NCBI GenBank assembly: GCA_005191425.1
Contig: SUPR01000098.1
Coordinates: 1 to 12,340 of the forward strand
DNA from: Candidatus Helarchaeota ASGARD archaeon Hel_GB_B
GTDB lineage: Archaea; Asgardarchaeota; Lokiarchaeia; Helarchaeales; HEL-GB-B
DNA: 12,340 nt
Reading direction: 5' to 3'
Shown: positions 1,283 to 11,099 of the stretch, piece by piece
Layout of the letters: each line of letters begins with the position of its first letter
How positions within the stretch are numbered: position 1 is the stretch's first letter
The notes under the pieces: model-generated
The model's input: the letters and a program-made list of their open reading frames with translations, nothing else
The model's database searches: none
Told to the model about the DNA's origin: nothing
Program-made: the position numbers and the translations under genes

Positions 1283-2413
1283 TTGGTCGAAATTACTCAG
1301 ATTGGAATTGTAGTTAATGAAGTTAAAGAGCCAATGGACCCTTTTAAATTTGAAAATGTTATCTCGAAAATAGTCGTTGACAAAAAATATGAAGACGGAC
1401 TATTCAACCTTGATAAAAATGAATATATTCAAGTAATATATTATTTTCATAAATCTCCAACACCTAAAAAATTAATTGGGACTTCATATTTTGGGTCTAA
1501 AGAGGGGGTCTTTGCTACAAGAAGTCCAATAAGGCCCGGAGCCGTTGGACTTTCTACCGCAAAGTTAATTAAAATCCAAAAAAATGAGGTTATAGTTAAA
1601 GGTTTGGACGCAATTGATGGAACACCTGTTCTTGACATTAAACCGTATACCCCCACACTTGATGAAAAAGAAATTTCAAGAATAAAAAAAGAGATAGATT
1701 ATAATAATTTAAAGAGAGACCTCTGGCCCTTAATAAGAAACTGGGACTTAGAACCAATATTACATGAAGCAGCAAAACTTCATGGACATTATTGCTCAGG
1801 GCTGGCAATGGGCGTCATGATGGGTTCCTATGCCATGAAAAAACTGGGTTCATTTGGGTTTTCTGATGGAATGGAAAATATAATTGCAATTGTTGAAATG
1901 AACCATTGTGCAGTTGATGGTATTCAATATACAACAGGTTGCACTTTTGGAAATAATGCCTTAATATTTAGAGACCTCGGTAAAACTGCATTATCATTGC
2001 TAAAAAGGACAGATACTTCATGTAAAGGAATTAGAATATCTTTGAAACCAATCCCCTGGGAATCACTCTCGGAAAATCAGCCAGAATTAAATGAACTTTT
2101 TGATAAGGTCGTCAAATATAGAAATGGTACCCCTAAAGATTTAAAACGTCTTAAAGAATTGATGCGATTAAATTCATTGGCATTTATCAAACGAAAATTT
2201 GAAGATACCTTTAACGTAGAGAATATCACTATCCCAAATCAACCATGGGCATCTATTAAAGAAAGCGTCAAATGTGAGAAATGCGGAGAATTAATAATGA
2301 AATCCAGGACTGTAAATATCAATGGGAAAGTTTTATGCCTTAAATGCTCTAATACTAGCTTCTACGAAGTTTCAGGGAATGGTATTCAAAAAATAGATTG
2401 GAACTCTCTTTAA
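1283..2413 (+). CDS. Fusion protein: N-terminal TsaA/TrmO(YaeB)-like SAM-binding domain + FmdE (formylmethanofuran dehydrogenase subunit E-like) domain + C-terminal CxxC...CxxC zinc finger
   Basis: aa1-122 carry GVFATRSPIRP and GLDAIDGTPVLDIKPY (TsaA hallmark). From about aa160: HGHYCSGLAMG and EMNHCAVDGIQYTTGCTFGNN..FRDLGKTA (FmdE hallmark). C331-x2-C334 and C352-x2-C355 form the finger. TTG start with SD. Confidence 0.9.
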   Translation: MVEITQIGIVVNEVKEPMDPFKFENVISKIVVDKKYEDGLFNLDKNEYIQVIYYFHKSPTPKKLIGTSYFGSKEGVFATRSPIRPGAVGLSTAKLIKIQKNEVIVKGLDAIDGTPVLDIKPYTPTLDEKEISRIKKEIDYNNLKRDLWPLIRNWDLEPILHEAAKLHGHYCSGLAMGVMMGSYAMKKLGSFGFSDGMENIIAIVEMNHCAVDGIQYTTGCTFGNNALIFRDLGKTALSLLKRTDTSCKGIRISLKPIPWESLSENQPELNELFDKVVKYRNGTPKDLKRLKELMRLNSLAFIKRKFEDTFNVENITIPNQPWASIKESVKCEKCGELIMKSRTVNINGKVLCLKCSNTSFYEVSGNGIQKIDWNSL

Positions 2414-4044: not shown

Positions 4045-6726
4045 ATGAAAAATAGAGAGTTATTCTTTCTGGGCATTGCAGATATGTCTGGTATGATTTT
4101 AATGACTGCAATAATTTTTCACTATCAAAATTATTATATCAATACATTGTTTGTAGGCAATTCTTATGCTTATTTATTAGGATTTCTTGTCCCGACTATC
4201 AGTCTCTTTATTGGTGCTTTTGCATATCCAATTAGTGGATATTTTAGCGATAGGTTATCTACTAGGTTTGGTAGACGTCGACCATTCTTTTTTCTTGCAA
4301 TTCCGGGTGGTATTAGTTTTGGACTTGTTTCTATGCCTATGTTTGTCCAAATAGGTATCAATTTTTCAAATAACTTCTTAAGTGGCTATATTTTCATCTT
4401 GACCTTTTATATTTTATTTGTAAGCTGCTGGAGATTTGTTCAGTGCCCATTTCTTGCTTTATTTGTAGATGTAACAAAACCCGAAGAACAGATTAAAGCT
4501 TCGATTTTTCTGAACATGTGTGATATTGCAGGCACTTTGATTGGAATTGGTATCCCGCTAATTCTAGATTTAAGCATTATAAAAGGGTACTTAACGCCCA
4601 TTTTCGGCTATTATAATGCAATCGAATTTTCTGGTTATTTATTTGGACTTATTTACATTATTTCATTTATTTTAGCCTTTTTCTTTGGACCTAAAGAAGA
4701 TATTGAATTACTTAAAAAGAATAAAAATAAGAATACCAAAGATGATAACTTTCTAAAAGCATTAAAAGAAATTCTTACAATTCCAGCTCTACGAAATTAT
4801 ATTATTTCTGCGTTTTTCTATGTATTTTGTTTTAATATTGCAATTTATTATCTAATGCCCTATTTAAATAGCCTTGGATTAAGTTCGTCAGATATAATAA
4901 TTTACGCAATTCCCTTGTTTCTAGCTATAATAATTTTGTTTTTTGTTTTTTCTAAGATCTCCAAATCATGGGGTAAAATCAAAACATTCAGAATAAGCCT
5001 CCTTTGGGGCGCCGTAGGTACCCCATTCTTGCTGGTGATTGGAGTAACTAATATCGGACCGCTTTCAATCATGGACCAATTAGTTATACTTTTTATAATT
5101 CTATCCGGTAGTATTGTCGGTATGTTAATTTTCCAATACGCAATCTTAATGGACCTCGGTAAATTAGTACCACTTAAAGAATCTACTTTCGTGGGCGTTT
5201 ACTCGTCTATTATCGTATTTTCGCAGCCCCTTTCCACATTCGCCTTAAGCTTTTTAACCCAATATTTAAACCCAATAAATATCTGGATTTGGAATGGAAA
5301 CCTCGGCTACGCTTCAATCGGTATTGTTATGGGAATTGGATTCCTTATAAGCTACTTTTTTATGAAAAAAGTAAACTACGAAACTCAAACTGCACCCGAA
5401 AACTCCGAAAACCCCGAAAACCCTAAAAATTCCGAAAACTCCAATAATCTCAATCATAATATTGATGAACAGTTTAAATCAAAAATTGATAACTTGACCA
5501 ATAATAAGAGCCCTATTAAACACATTAAAAAATTGGATTATCCACGCCTGTGTGGCACTCCCGGAGAAAAAAATGGCGTTAATTATATAACTTCTGTTTT
5601 AGACTCAGTCGATTTCCATTATAAAATTGAAGAATTCCCCGTACCAAAATCCTCCAAATTTAAAAAGATATTATTACCTCTCCTTGTAATTGTCTGGGGA
5701 ATAATAAGTCTTTATAATGTGTTTTTTATTTCAGGAACTTTTGAATTAATAATAGCAATTATAATCTTGATAGTACCACTATCTTTAATTATTATCCTCG
5801 TCTTTTTAAATAAGCTCTTTAAATTCATACTCAAAGGTTATTATTTGAAAATTAAAAAATTGGAAAAAAAATTGCAATTTGACCGGACTCGCTCAATAAA
5901 TATTAAATTTGGAAAAAATATTATCGCCGATTATTCGCCACAAAAACCAAAAGGACATATCATCTTTACTGCTCACCATGATAGCATCTCATTATTAATT
6001 GGCAATATGAAATTACTCACAGTCCTTGGAGCTATTTCTATTGTTTCATTATTTATTTATAGTATAGCCTATTTTCTCCATTACCTGTTTATCGTGCTTA
6101 ATATACCTATTAATTTATTCGGACAATTCCCGGTCCTTTTTATTATTATCTTGCTATCCTTCTTGATACCTATATCTATACTCTTAACTATCCGGGCATT
6201 TAGGTCAAATAAATCCCATGGCTCTATTGACGATATGACAGGTACCAGCATATTGCTAGAACTATCCAAAATCATCAAGGAGATAAATCCTCCTTTTAAA
6301 ATTACCCTGGCTTTCTTCTCAGGTGAAGAATTGGGCCTTCTAGGCTCCGGGTTCCATTACTATAACAATTCCGATCTATATAACGATACAACACTTATTT
6401 CGGTGGACATGATTGGTGAAATTAGCCCTCTTTCTATTGTTAAATCAGTTAGCCCTATTTTGCCCGCAAAAATGGACCAAAGTTTGAACGAATTATTCTC
6501 TTGTATTGCTGATAAACTCGGTATCAAATTAAAGAAAATCAAATTTCTATATCCTGGGTCAGATTTTGCTCATTGGCTCCTAAATAATAAGTCCACTACA
6601 TGGATCATTAACCCAAGTAAATACATCCATACACCAAAAGATGTGCCTAACAATGTTAATATCGAACTTTTGAATAATTGCTTAAAATTAATAACTGGCT
6701 TTTTACTAGAAAAAACTAAAGATTAA
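4045..6726 (+). CDS. Fusion: 12-TM MFS transporter (GPH/MFS_2-like) + low-complexity linker + M28-family zinc metallopeptidase/hydrolase with four inserted TM helices
   Basis: aa1-443: 12 hydrophobic segments and MFS motif A GYFSDRLSTRFGRRRPF. aa493-893: YPRLCGTPGE, AHHDS (H644), GSIDDMTG (D730), FSGEELGLLGS (E761/E762), SVDMIG (D788), SDF, YIHTPKD (H862). One uninterrupted frame. Confidence 0.88.
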   Translation: MKNRELFFLGIADMSGMILMTAIIFHYQNYYINTLFVGNSYAYLLGFLVPTISLFIGAFAYPISGYFSDRLSTRFGRRRPFFFLAIPGGISFGLVSMPMFVQIGINFSNNFLSGYIFILTFYILFVSCWRFVQCPFLALFVDVTKPEEQIKASIFLNMCDIAGTLIGIGIPLILDLSIIKGYLTPIFGYYNAIEFSGYLFGLIYIISFILAFFFGPKEDIELLKKNKNKNTKDDNFLKALKEILTIPALRNYIISAFFYVFCFNIAIYYLMPYLNSLGLSSSDIIIYAIPLFLAIIILFFVFSKISKSWGKIKTFRISLLWGAVGTPFLLVIGVTNIGPLSIMDQLVILFIILSGSIVGMLIFQYAILMDLGKLVPLKESTFVGVYSSIIVFSQPLSTFALSFLTQYLNPINIWIWNGNLGYASIGIVMGIGFLISYFFMKKVNYETQTAPENSENPENPKNSENSNNLNHNIDEQFKSKIDNLTNNKSPIKHIKKLDYPRLCGTPGEKNGVNYITSVLDSVDFHYKIEEFPVPKSSKFKKILLPLLVIVWGIISLYNVFFISGTFELIIAIIILIVPLSLIIILVFLNKLFKFILKGYYLKIKKLEKKLQFDRTRSINIKFGKNIIADYSPQKPKGHIIFTAHHDSISLLIGNMKLLTVLGAISIVSLFIYSIAYFLHYLFIVLNIPINLFGQFPVLFIIILLSFLIPISILLTIRAFRSNKSHGSIDDMTGTSILLELSKIIKEINPPFKITLAFFSGEELGLLGSGFHYYNNSDLYNDTTLISVDMIGEISPLSIVKSVSPILPAKMDQSLNELFSCIADKLGIKLKKIKFLYPGSDFAHWLLNNKSTTWIINPSKYIHTPKDVPNNVNIELLNNCLKLITGFLLEKTKD
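5395..5439 (+). repeat. In-frame 9-bp tandem repeat x5 encoding (P/S)-(E/K)-N in the MFS-M28 linker
   Basis: cccgaaaac tccgaaaac cccgaaaac cctaaaaat tccgaaaac = PEN SEN PEN PKN SEN. Confidence 0.9.
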
Positions 6727-6916: not shown

Positions 6917-7786
6917 TTACTCAATTTGTTTATTTCGTATCTTTATGAATCTCCAAATAGTAATTACTATTGCTATACTCATTGTAACTCCAGCCCAAGG
7001 TAATGCATATTGAACACCATAAATAAAACTGTCTATTCCTTGAAATATTAGTGCCAGTAAATATGGAACAATTACATAAATTGTAGCCACCGATCTTTTA
7101 TTCTCTATTGTTTTAAAGTAAACTTGCCCTCTTTTTGTCAGCGACATATAAATACTAAATATTAAATAAATAAGTGCCGAAGTTTAAAACCAACCAAAAT
7201 AATTCATTAAAGGTATTCCGTAATAAAGACCACCTTCTGGCCAATACCAGTTCCCTCTCGCTACCATCACTGGGTCATTTATTAAATCCCATGACATCAT
7301 TATAGCTCCCGCTACCATCGATACCACATACAATTTGATAAATTTTTTCACTGAACCTATTCTCTCAAACTCCGACCGATTTTCACTTATTTTTCCAAAT
7401 ATTATGTTCGTCATTGAATACATACAATATATATATGTAAACCACGTTAAAGGAATTATATACGGCACCTTGTCCATAAACATTGGCCCTAAACTGGTCG
7501 TATAATGCCACTTACATCCTGGTATTAACCCTATAGCACCAATATATTCTAGCATTAATGTCAATGAATACGTTATCACTAAAAAAATCATTGTGTTCCA
7601 AATTCCTACCGTTTTTTTACCATGGACTATCGTAAACCCAAAAAATATTATTACTTCTATAAGCGTCAGCACCGTCTCCGAAATATTGAATAAAATCGTC
7701 CTCTTTAATATGAAGAATATTGTAGCTAATAATAATAATATCACAGAAACCAATTCATATTTATCTTTTAACATCTGATTAACCAT
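6917..7786 (-). pseudogene. cruF: CruF-family (carotenoid biosynthesis/hydratase-like) membrane protein interrupted by a single in-frame TAA at 7184-7186
   Basis: Motifs HG...G, LEYIG, Y..SLGP...KVPYIIPLTW, WDLINDP, W.W...G.YYGIPLMNYFGWF. Track ORFs 7184..7786 and 6917..7147 are in the same frame, joined by 12 open codons (TSALIYLIFSIY) after the TAA. The joined frame has 289 positions before the final stop. The symbol is family-level only. Confidence 0.8.
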
Positions 7787-8125: not shown

Positions 8126-9241
8126 ATGTTGCCAGGAAAGTATTTGGTATTAGGAGATATTGCTTGTGCAGAAGGTGCAATTTATGCTGGATGCAAATTA
8201 TTCGCAGGGTACCCAATAACTCCCGCAACGGAAATTGCAGAATACCTTTCAAGAAGATTACCTGAAGTTGGGGGTGATTTTTTACAAATGGAGGACGAAA
8301 TTGCATCATCTGCTGCAATAATTGGAGCATCATGGGCAGGTGTTAAGGCTATGACTGCTACATCAGGCCCTGGCTTTAGTTTAATGCAAGAGAATATTTC
8401 ATACGCATATCATACAGAAACACCTATTGTAATAGTTAATGTTCAAAGGTCTGGGCCATCTACTGGTCAAGCTACCTATCCAGCTCAACAAGAATTCTAT
8501 CAATCACGATATGGTGCTCACGGAGATTATGAATCAATTGTATTGTGTCCAAGTTCAGTACAAGAAACATTCGATATGACGATTCGATCTTTTAATTTGT
8601 CCGAACAATACAGAATACCCGTTATTTTACTAATGGACGGAGCAATTGGACATATGAGAGAAAAATTGGTCATCCCAAATCCTAAAAATCTAAATATTAT
8701 AAGACGAGTTTATATGGACGATAACTATACAGAGAATGGACTTGTTTTACCAATGGGTAAGTTTGGCTCCGGCCAAAAATTATTAATAACTGGGTCTGCT
8801 CACGAAATTTCCGGAAAAAGAAATTATACTCCTAAAGTCCATCAATCTACAATTAAACGTATTTGCTCGAAGATCCAAGCCAATAATGATATCATTGAAA
8901 TTGAGTCCTTTAATTTAGATGATGCAAATACAATTATTATTTCTTATGGAGTCTCAGCTAGACCGTCCTATGGCGCTATGTTAAATTTAAGGAAAAAAGG
9001 CGTAAAAATAGGGTTTATTCGATTAAAAACAATCTGGCCCTTCCCGGATACACTGCTTAGAAATTTGATCAATAATAATGTGCATTCCATTTTCGTTGTC
9101 GAAATGAATAATGGTATGGCTGTGCGAGAAGTAAGTCGAGTTATTAAAAATGCACAAGTTTTCAGTATATCCGTTCTGGGTGGGATCATCCCAAAAATTA
9201 AATATATCACCAAAAAAGTGGAGGAGATTATTTATGATTAA
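8126..9241 (+). CDS. korA: 2-oxoacid:ferredoxin oxidoreductase alpha subunit (KorA-like, gamma-less short alpha)
   Basis: AGYPITPATEIAE, QMEDEIAS, ATSGPGFSLMQE, VQRSGPSTG. Substrate specificity cannot be determined from sequence. Confidence 0.93.
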   Translation: MLPGKYLVLGDIACAEGAIYAGCKLFAGYPITPATEIAEYLSRRLPEVGGDFLQMEDEIASSAAIIGASWAGVKAMTATSGPGFSLMQENISYAYHTETPIVIVNVQRSGPSTGQATYPAQQEFYQSRYGAHGDYESIVLCPSSVQETFDMTIRSFNLSEQYRIPVILLMDGAIGHMREKLVIPNPKNLNIIRRVYMDDNYTENGLVLPMGKFGSGQKLLITGSAHEISGKRNYTPKVHQSTIKRICSKIQANNDIIEIESFNLDDANTIIISYGVSARPSYGAMLNLRKKGVKIGFIRLKTIWPFPDTLLRNLINNNVHSIFVVEMNNGMAVREVSRVIKNAQVFSISVLGGIIPKIKYITKKVEEIIYD

Positions 9242-10025
9242 TCTGATTAAAAAATATTCGCGATTTTTACCACATAAGTTTTGTCCTGGATGTGGAAATG
9301 GCATTATTCTTAATTGTTTTATGAGAGCTATAGATCAATTAGACATAGATCCGAATTCATATCTGTGCGTTTCTGGGATTGGGTGCTCTTCATGGATTCC
9401 AAGTCCATATCTGAATTTAGATACATTCCATACAGTCCATGGTAGAGCTATTGCTTATGCTACTGGTGCTAAAGTTGCCAATAAAAAGTTGAATGTCATT
9501 GTGTTCACTGGAGATGGCGATGGTGCTGGAATTGGCGGAAATCATTTGATTCATGCAGCTAGACGAAATATAAATTTAACTGTTTTTTTGATAAATAATT
9601 ACATTTATGGGATGACTGGCGGACAAATGGCACCTACTACTCCCAAAAACTCGATAACTTCAACCTCAGTTTTCGGGAGCCCGGAACGTCCTTTTGACCT
9701 CTGTGATTTGGTAAAGTCTGCAGGTGCTACATATATAGCTAGATGGAGTGTATTTCAGCCCCGACAACTAATTAAATCTATGAAAGAAGCTATATTACAT
9801 AAAGGATTTGCTTTTATTGAAATATTATCACCATGCCCAACTGAATTCGGAAGGAGAAATCAACTCTCAATTAAAGACTATCTTTCTCTTTTTGATCCGA
9901 AATCTTCTCGCGAAAAAAATAAATTTAAAACACCATTTGGAATTCTAGTTAAGAAAAAATCTCCAGAATTTTGTGATATTTTAGATCAAATAAAAAAAAT
10001 TGCTTCTAAAAAAGGTGATATCTAA
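9234..10025 (+). CDS. korB: 2-oxoacid:ferredoxin oxidoreductase beta subunit (TPP and 4Fe-4S binding)
   Basis: FCPGCG, GIGCS, HGRA, GDGDGAGIGGNHLIHAARRN, NNYIYGMTGGQMAPTTP, SPCPT. Start moved from the track's 9150 to ATG 9234, which has GGAGG at 9220-9224 and overlaps the korA stop by 8 nt. Confidence 0.93.
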   Translation: MINLIKKYSRFLPHKFCPGCGNGIILNCFMRAIDQLDIDPNSYLCVSGIGCSSWIPSPYLNLDTFHTVHGRAIAYATGAKVANKKLNVIVFTGDGDGAGIGGNHLIHAARRNINLTVFLINNYIYGMTGGQMAPTTPKNSITSTSVFGSPERPFDLCDLVKSAGATYIARWSVFQPRQLIKSMKEAILHKGFAFIEILSPCPTEFGRRNQLSIKDYLSLFDPKSSREKNKFKTPFGILVKKKSPEFCDILDQIKKIASKKGDI

Positions 10026-10026
10026 A

Positions 10027-10581
10027 TTGCTCAAATCAATTAAAATTATAGGCATGGGGGGACAAGGTATCATAAAAATTAGTTTAATACTCGCTGAATC
10101 TATTTTTGAAAAAGGTCTAAATGTAGTCCAAACTCAAACATATGGAGCAGAAGTCCGTCGAGGTGTAGTATCCGCTGATGTCACCTATGAAACACAAAAA
10201 GATACAGAGATTTATGATTTAAATGTTGATTTTTTTGATTATTTTTTAATAATGGCTAAAAATGGGTTTGAAAAATATAAGTCCATTATTAATAATTACT
10301 CTACTATTATTTTCTCAGATTCATTCTCCATCCCAATAAATGAATTAAATTTAAAATCGTGTATTAAATACGCTATTCCAGATTCAGATGTCATCTCTCA
10401 ACTCAAATTTAGATCATCCTTGAATATGTGTTATCTTGGTGCTCTCGCTAAGATTTGTCCAGATTTGGATATCGATATCTTAAAAAATATAATAACGAGA
10501 GAGAGCTCTAATAAATATCTGGACGATAATTTAGAATCTTTTCAAATTGGACTTGATATAATTAAAAAATATAATTCTTAA
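10027..10581 (+). CDS. korC: 2-oxoacid:ferredoxin oxidoreductase gamma subunit
   Basis: GMGGQG, VVQTQTYGAEVRRG, NMCYLGAL. Start moved from the track's 10000 to TTG 10027, preceded by AGGTGA at 10013-10018 and 1 nt after the korB stop. Confidence 0.88.
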   Translation: MLKSIKIIGMGGQGIIKISLILAESIFEKGLNVVQTQTYGAEVRRGVVSADVTYETQKDTEIYDLNVDFFDYFLIMAKNGFEKYKSIINNYSTIIFSDSFSIPINELNLKSCIKYAIPDSDVISQLKFRSSLNMCYLGALAKICPDLDIDILKNIITRESSNKYLDDNLESFQIGLDIIKKYNS

Positions 10582-11099
10582 TCAGACTTCGATACTCCCG
10601 ATACTCCCGATACTATACAACCTTTTTCCGTTAAATTATGGGAGAATTTTAATTCGGCTAAATTTGTTAAATATTCTCTGAATAATGAACGACAATAAGT
10701 ACGACAATATAATTCTGGCGGATTTTCTAAACCAAATTTCTTAAACAATTTTTTCATTTCTTTTTTTAAAGGACACTTATCTATAGTTATTTTTATTCCA
10801 TCGGGTCTATCCTCAAATGTAACGTGAGACAATGGCAATATATATTGCAGACTTTCTATCACTCTTTTCATCAACATATTTCCAACTTGTTTTTGAGACA
10901 TAACCTTAACTGATTTAACTAAAGATCTTTTCAAGAACCCAAGTCTATAATTTGCACTCCATTCCGCCATTTTTTGGCCGTATTCAATTGGCTCATTTTC
11001 ACCATATTTTTCCGATAAATATTTGATTAATATAACATAATTTAACATTAGACTTTCCTTTGTAGATTCATACATTTCTTTAATACTAAAATTTTTCAT
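10578..11099 (-). CDS. V4R/ATC-hydrolase-clan-like small protein with four cysteines (putative metal/ligand-binding or sensory domain)
   Basis: Helical N-half, then ITIDKCPL...YCRTYC...KGCIV (C109, C132, C136, C161), the cysteine pattern typical of V4R-clan domains. GGAAGG SD-like upstream. 40-nt gap from the dehydrogenase gene. Confidence 0.6.
   Translation of the reverse strand: MKNFSIKEMYESTKESLMLNYVILIKYLSEKYGENEPIEYGQKMAEWSANYRLGFLKRSLVKSVKVMSQKQVGNMLMKRVIESLQYILPLSHVTFEDRPDGIKITIDKCPLKKEMKKLFKKFGLENPPELYCRTYCRSLFREYLTNLAELKFSHNLTEKGCIVSGVSGVSKSD
10590..10614 (-). repeat. In-frame 9-bp tandem repeat (about 2.8 copies) encoding VSGVSGVS
   Basis: Plus strand cgatactcc cgatactcc cgatact. 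Confidence 0.85.

Follow-up and report, generated by a model that had tools for sequence, protein, structure and literature searches.

In Gram-negative bacteria the major facilitator superfamily (MFS) carrier LplT flips lysolipid, which is then modified by Aas at the cytoplasmic surface; the two genes stand side by side in most bacteria and form a single ORF in some, and their products form a complex (PMC11416262). Fusions that place an MFS carrier and a hydrolase in a single chain are very uncommon. Among M28 metallopeptidases, proteins of the ERMP1/Pff1 type consist of a contiguous M28 domain followed by transmembrane helices and are not known to have a carrier fold or hairpins within the catalytic domain. 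Here we describe a gene of a different build, found in a window (the whole stretch of DNA analyzed) of 12,340 nucleotides (nt) from the Helarchaeota genome Hel_GB_B. The gene, 4045..6726 on the plus strand, is one open reading frame (ORF) of 893 amino acids (aa) plus stop, and its product, named P0001, joins a sugar/lipid-type MFS carrier of the GPH/MFSD2 group to a membrane-embedded M28 peptidase. That a single frame holds a 12-helix MFS domain, a linker and an M28 domain had been proposed in an initial annotation made from the letters of the DNA, and was borne out by the ORF, Pfam matches, hydropathy and structure models.

A conserved single-chain gene

The fusion is a real and conserved single-chain gene. 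A word-based search of 5.8 billion proteins returned two more full-length clusters from other Helarchaeota lineages, P0002 (871 aa, 70% identical to P0001) and P0003 (855 aa, 46% identical), each of which carries both Pfam families. In the alignment of the three proteins the linker is homologous, residues H644, D729, D730, E761, E762, D788 and H862 are invariant, and the MFS halves are 54-76% identical to each other. An open frame of 2.7 kb with conserved homologues, in DNA of about 30% GC (the level across the whole window), is far beyond what chance would produce.

The junction of the two halves was found bridged by contigs assembled from runs of other studies, in records spanning 4627-5727 and 5282-6726. 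Compared with the window, these contigs carry point changes and an 18-nt deletion in the linker repeat, all of which keep the frame; a stop or frameshift in the linker, which the initial annotation had asked to be looked for, was thus not seen in them. The repeat itself, at 5396-5442, has a period of 9 nt and 5.2 copies (Tandem Repeats Finder), and is the reason why the linker of P0001 exceeds those of P0002 and P0003 by 15 aa. The window belongs to a metagenome-assembled genome of 3.54 Mb in 182 contigs (93.7% complete), and in one relative (L010) the frame is broken by a single base in an A-rich run, as might be expected if an assembly or sequencing error had joined two genes. The same fusion was present, however, in independent NCBI and JGI assemblies, and this, together with the bridging contigs from different studies and the homologous linker, makes such an artefact very unlikely indeed. 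DNA matching the window comes from marine-sediment and hydrothermal-vent metagenomes, and the named relatives carry the label 'Candidatus Helarchaeota archaeon'.

The linker had also been described as lacking an in-frame ATG from which a separate peptidase gene could start. This holds for P0001, which has no Met within residues 444-537, but codon 497 is TTG in the window and becomes ATG by a T>A change in strain variants (runs X2 and X3). Moreover, P0002 has Met at the position matching L497, and the separate M28 ORF of L010 begins at exactly the same position. An internal start at codon 497, yielding a free peptidase, is therefore conceivable.

The uninterrupted fusion was found in one of 400 Asgard species representatives, namely the genome of the window; G126, a genome of the same genus and 93% complete, did not yield it. 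Some relatives encode the two parts separately, and most have the peptidase alone. In genome G128, which is of the same species as L004 (99.8% identical), the MFS_2 and M28 genes are adjacent on the same strand and 33 nt apart; in L004 the MFS_2 gene encodes 455 aa (29% identical to the N-half, E 8e-53) and the M28 gene behind it, P0005, encodes 421 aa. This split pair is directly preceded by two genes for GT87 glycosyltransferases of the GT-C type (L004 1684-7266), in the same orientation and with short gaps, an operon-like arrangement. In L010 an MFS part 60% identical to the N-half stops in the A-rich run and the M28 frame is offset by one base. This M28 frame is already open across the MFS stop and encodes homologous linker sequence; L010 represents either a recent split of a fused gene or a base error in one. 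Relatives consistently encoding two genes had been named beforehand as a result that would speak against the fusion; some do encode two, but P0002 and P0003 are fused. In a maximum-likelihood tree of the M28 domain, fused, split and unlinked copies fell into one clade (support 100/99). Neither a Foldseek search of the PDB nor literature searches brought up a characterised protein, a solved structure or a paper with the MFS-M28 architecture, in agreement with the first reading of the gene as lacking a characterised counterpart.

The two halves and their predicted topology

Pfam Peptidase_M28 (PF04389) matched residues 724-884 with 66.3 bits (cut-off 21.3), over profile positions 27-190 of 193; the first 26 positions were unmatched because a transmembrane hairpin sets the AHHDS strand apart from the rest of the domain. 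A model of residues 470-893, based on 108 family rows, showed the M28 alpha/beta fold with a predicted local distance difference test score (pLDDT) of 96.2 and a predicted template-modelling score (pTM) of 0.93. The metal ligands H644, D729 (bridging), E762, D788 and H862 and the general base E761 are all present; among the 108 rows H644, D729, E762, N625 and D646 are invariant and E761, D788 and H862 nearly so. The ligand set given in the initial annotation was right in H644, E762, D788 and H862, as was the general base E761, but its bridging aspartate, D730, has to be replaced by the family-invariant D729, which aligns with the Asp of the canonical GAxDN motif (GANDN in BSAP), whereas D730 falls where most M28 proteins have Asn. 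Judged by these residues, the hydrolase site is intact. A glutaminyl-cyclase reading of the domain was set aside, since the two-metal site has its full set of five ligands; only one zinc is bound by the animal-type cyclases that are related to M28.

When the C-half model was compared with the PDB by Foldseek, only soluble M28 aminopeptidases and glutaminyl cyclases were returned at probability 1.00, including 2EK8, 1XJO, 6HC7, 5GNE and 1AMP. The template-modelling (TM) score by query was only about 0.5, because no solved structure matches the membrane part. By sequence the nearest solved relatives are BSAP/YwaD and 2EK8, to whose N-terminal helix residues 468-537 align; with the Foldseek matches included, the nearest solved relatives are all aminopeptidases, namely BSAP/YwaD, 2EK8, SGAP and LapA. 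In both the C-half and the full-length model, helices 538-561 and 565-586 precede the strand ending at H644, and helices 655-684 and 696-718 lie between H644 and G726, confirming two transmembrane hairpins within the M28 fold, one before AHHDS and one between AHHDS and GSIDD, as first annotated. The contiguous soluble catalytic domain of solved M28 members is thus interrupted twice, and the protein still falls within the family definition. Hairpin 1 occupies the place of the PA domain in BSAP and 2EK8. The helices of hairpin 2 start about 10 residues past H644 and finish about 10 residues short of D729, suggesting that the di-zinc site lies near the membrane surface.

This hairpin-threaded peptidase is not peculiar to the fusion. 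Searched exhaustively by HMMER with the C-half, 1.84 billion representatives yielded 568 proteins. The best 150 of the 568 are mostly 380-445 aa long, extend over all of the C-half and share its hydrophobic inserts between HxDS and GxxDD; an insert of 70-85 aa at this place was seen in more than 100 representative family members. The first soluble piece (residues 468-537) starts at about residue 5-20 of the stand-alone members, and the C-half is 40-42% identical over its whole length to P0004 and P0005. Named members belong to Helarchaeota, Promethearchaeota, Hermodarchaeota and Actinomycetota, and whole-length structural look-alikes (TM-score 0.70-0.86) were found in clusters of Chloroflexota, Gemmatimonadota, Actinomycetota and Bacillota. 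The sequence of the hairpins is poorly conserved across the family. The genome of the window has four more M28 matches, two of which cover nearly the whole module (C172, 413 aa, and C97, 402 aa) and two part of it (C56 and C160). No curated family model in NCBIfam names the group. This membrane-embedded M28 forms an unnamed stand-alone family, of about 380-445 aa and widespread in Asgard archaea and several bacterial phyla, and is not a product of the fusion; only the join to the MFS carrier is rare.

The carrier half was matched at residues 10-370 by Pfam MFS_2 (PF13347; 63.6 bits, cut-off 27) and MFS_1 (63.4 bits, cut-off 33.4). Twelve long helices were seen in the full-length model and in hydropathy, with a K/R-rich loop at 218-251, in keeping with two halves of six helices linked by a long cytoplasmic loop; the pLDDT of this part is low, and the assignment rests on helix count and hydropathy. 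A profile of the MFS clade matched MFSD2A at 4.8e-31 and MelB at 2.8e-26, in both cases over nearly the full length. MFS motif A, GxxxD(R/K)xGR(R/K), is present between transmembrane helices 2 and 3 as G65-YFS-D69-RLSTRF-G76-RRR-P80, with D69 and G76 the same in all of 87 MFS rows and R78, R79 and P80 in nearly all. NCBIfam gave sub-threshold matches only (GPH_sucrose and LapA), and with the whole protein as query a feature search of the ESM Atlas gave plain MFS clusters only. A paralogous carrier (28-29% identical to the N-half) occurs in two genomes in an operon with a penicillin amidase and a small ORF, which by gene order is a second link of this carrier group to an amide hydrolase. The operon, at L011 2881-7338 and L034 4011-8441, is kept in two Helarchaeales-related genomes and comprises a penicillin amidase of about 870 aa, a protein of 158-176 aa and a GPH-like MFS protein.

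On the side of the catalytic domain the flanks of the hairpins carry on average 5.7 K+R against 1.1 on the turns (108 family rows), a bias seen in 107 of the 108, and an N-terminal hydrophobic stretch was present in only 1 of 105 stand-alone members. Motif A is cytoplasmic in known MFS carriers. From the charge bias, the lack of signal peptides and where motif A lies, all catalytic pieces are predicted to be on the cytoplasmic face of a protein with 12+2+2 helices; the prediction coincides with that made at the outset, and the helix count agrees with the models and hydropathy.

Possible function of the fused protein

We propose that P0001 consists of a GPH/MFSD2-type carrier, a short flexible linker and a di-zinc M28 exopeptidase that faces the cytoplasm and would anchor itself in the membrane by the four helices of its two hairpins. 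Since the active site is predicted to be cytoplasmic and close to the membrane, the carrier would deliver its substrate to the inner membrane face, where the peptidase would take off a terminal amino acid. Transport-coupled hydrolysis of this kind is, in our judgement, on balance probable. Its most likely version would be the import of a small peptide or amino-acid conjugate that is then cleaved, although an amphipathic substrate would be just as possible. The distribution of the genes follows the pattern of LplT and Aas, being fused in P0001, P0002 and P0003, adjacent in G128/L004 and split by a frameshift in L010.

Several observations weigh against this proposal. In the full-length model, where six rows cover the MFS part, the MFS half has a pLDDT of about 45, at which the packing of the domains and the orientation of the active site are unreadable. 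The cation-site aspartates D55 and D59 of MelB (WDAxxDP in MFSD2A) were not found in the fused clade, which in the profile alignment has G57 and Y61 at these positions, unlike the wider set of MFS homologues, where DAxxDP is kept; the loss means that neither the coupling ion nor the direction of transport is fixed by the sequence. No transporter was found beside the sampled close stand-alone relatives P0004, P0006, P0007 and P0010 or three distant members, indicating that the peptidase does not need this carrier, and the neighbourhoods of the sampled stand-alone M28 genes showed no recurring partner. Finally, the fused P0003 falls outside a 99/98 subclade that holds the fused P0001 and P0002 together with unlinked copies. 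The link between MFS and M28 must therefore have been made or lost more than once, and the data fit either course.

The carrier half might instead move an amphipathic, lipid-like molecule between the leaflets, as do MFSD2A, LplT and LtaA, and the M28 domain might then strip its head group, aminoacyl or peptidyl, at the inner leaflet, in envelope or lipid remodelling. Among solved structures the lysolipid symporter MFSD2A scores best with the MFS clade profile, but it exceeds MelB by a small margin and both belong to the same family. Hairpin 2 would tie the active site to the membrane surface, as suits a membrane-bound substrate, and LplT with Aas provides a precedent (PMC11416262); the poor conservation of the hairpin sequence, however, is expected of a plain anchor. 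Membrane-lipid genes are often found around the fused and split loci: the two GT87 genes upstream of the split pair, UbiA, PAP2 and an AMP-binding ligase near P0002, and a Caroten_synth-like membrane protein that adjoins the fused gene both in the window and in L013. The theme is loose, though, and absent from L014. We know of no M28 enzyme that acts on lipids. We consider this alternative unlikely, if worth keeping in mind.

It is rather improbable that the fusion is one of convenience, in which a housekeeping, membrane-tethered aminopeptidase was joined to its neighbour by neutral read-through and no substrate is handed over. The stand-alone form of the peptidase is the rule and has neighbourhoods unrelated to transport, the genome has its four further M28 paralogues, the fusion is patchy among Asgard representatives and missing from the assembly of G126, and codon 497, which is ATG in strain variants, matches a Met of P0002 and is where the M28 ORF of L010 begins, might serve as the start of a separate peptidase. 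Nevertheless, the fused frame has been kept down to 46% identity, with MFS halves at 54-76% and linker changes only in frame, and its retention across lineages argues for selection on the single chain. The occurrence of both adjacent and fused forms is, in addition, a classic sign of a functional link. The same topology would also fit a protein whose M28 domain cuts a precursor to size in the cytoplasm and whose MFS half then exports the product, by the logic of peptidase-containing ATP-binding cassette (ABC) exporters, and the loss from the fused clade of the cation-site aspartates of importing GPH symporters means that import by Na+ symport is not assured. On the other hand, the GPH/MFSD2 carriers characterised so far are, to our knowledge, importers, no precursor-peptide or biosynthetic genes are conserved beside the fused loci, and M28 enzymes are exopeptidases rather than leader-peptide endoproteases. 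Processing followed by export is thus quite improbable.

A fusion is among the few signs in sequence by which an orphan carrier can be linked with an orphan enzyme, and the proposal of transport-coupled hydrolysis concerns two uncharacterised groups, a divergent GPH/MFSD2-like clade without the usual cation site and a large, unnamed family of hairpin-threaded M28 proteins. If the halves do hand over a substrate, the protein would be a compact model of transport-coupled catabolism or envelope remodelling in Asgard archaea, a group believed to subsist mainly on peptides. If an aminoacyl- or peptidyl-lipid or a lipopeptide is flipped and cleaved, the stand-alone membrane M28 family would be the first M28 group acting on membrane-bound substrates.

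The locus and its comparison with known systems

The positions of the features of the fused gene are given in Table 1. The gene is monocistronic, with an AT-rich spacer of 584 nt upstream and a convergent gene downstream. A Caroten_synth (PF04240)-like membrane protein is encoded at 6926-7786 on the minus strand and is 76% identical over 282 aa to its counterpart beside P0002 in L013; the window copy has an in-frame TAA at 7184-7186 where the L013 orthologue has Ser, either a nonsense mutation or a base error. At 1283-2413 (plus strand) a 376-aa ORF encodes an unusual three-part protein with a TrmO N-terminal domain, an FmdE domain and a DksA/TraR-type C4 zinc finger. Three genes in a row at 8126-10581 (plus strand) encode the alpha, beta and gamma subunits of a 2-oxoacid:ferredoxin oxidoreductase (POR_N/PFOR_II, TPP_enzyme_C and POR), a trio also found near the paralogous MFS operon in L011, and at 10578-11099 (minus strand) there is a 173-aa ORF without a Pfam match.

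Table 1. Features of the fused gene, with window positions and the evidence for each
Feature	Position	Strand	Evidence
Whole fused gene, P0001	4045..6726	+	P0002 and P0003 align end to end
MFS carrier domain, residues 1-443, 12 predicted transmembrane helices, GPH/MFSD2-like	4045..5373	+	Pfam MFS_2/MFS_1, clade profile, model
MFS motif A, G65-P80, GYFSDRLSTRFGRRRP, cytoplasmic loop between transmembrane helices 2 and 3	4237..4284	+	Conservation in 87 MFS rows
PEN/SEN disordered linker, residues 444-467	5374..5445	+	pLDDT <50; tandem repeat within
M28 soluble piece 1, residues 468-537: N-terminal helices, DYPRxxGTxGE motif, first strand	5446..5655	+	Model pLDDT >90
L497 TTG codon, possible internal start	5533..5535	+	Sequence; variants; relatives
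Transmembrane hairpin 1, residues 538-586	5656..5802	+	Helices 538-561 and 565-586 (models); hydropathy
M28 soluble piece 2, residues 587-654: K-rich helix, NIIA strand, AHHDS with H644 (5974-5976) and D646	5803..6006	+	Family invariants
Transmembrane hairpin 2, residues 655-718, between Zn ligands H644 and D729	6007..6198	+	Helices 655-684 and 696-718 (models)
M28 catalytic core, residues 719-893	6199..6723	+	Pfam PF04389, family invariants, Foldseek
Core residues D729, E761/E762, D788, H862	6229-6231, 6325-6330, 6406-6408, 6628-6630	+	Family invariants

Compared with MelB and MFSD2A, the carrier half shares the profile match over nearly its whole length, the 12 helices and motif A, but these two carriers have Na+-site aspartates where P0001 has G57 and Y61, and neither has a hydrolase attached. 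The C-half is a full member of the stand-alone membrane M28 family, with the same two hairpins, and differs from it in the attached carrier. The soluble M28 enzymes BSAP/YwaD (6HC6), that of Aneurinibacillus AM-1 (2EK8), SGAP of S. griseus (1XJO/1CP7), LapA/LapB of Legionella and AAP of Aeromonas (1AMP) have the fold, the H-D-E-D-H ligands and the general-base Glu in common with the C-half. They are secreted, whereas the domain of P0001, with two transmembrane hairpins in its fold and without a signal peptide, is predicted to lie in the cytoplasm.

Peptidase-containing ABC transporters (PCATs) and M28 proteins of the ERMP1/Pff1 type likewise combine a peptidase and a polytopic membrane module in one chain, although in PCATs a C39 cysteine peptidase is carried on an ABC exporter. 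LplT and Aas of Gram-negative bacteria resemble the present system in pairing an MFS carrier with an enzyme, which for Aas acts at the cytoplasmic surface of the membrane and for P0001 is predicted to do so, and in occurring in both adjacent and fused forms. In contrast to that pair, the enzyme of P0001 is a di-zinc M28 hydrolase and not an acyltransferase/acyl-acyl carrier protein (ACP) synthetase, it has four transmembrane helices where Aas has none, and its carrier is GPH/MFSD2-like rather than a member of the LplT family, in an Asgard archaeon as host.

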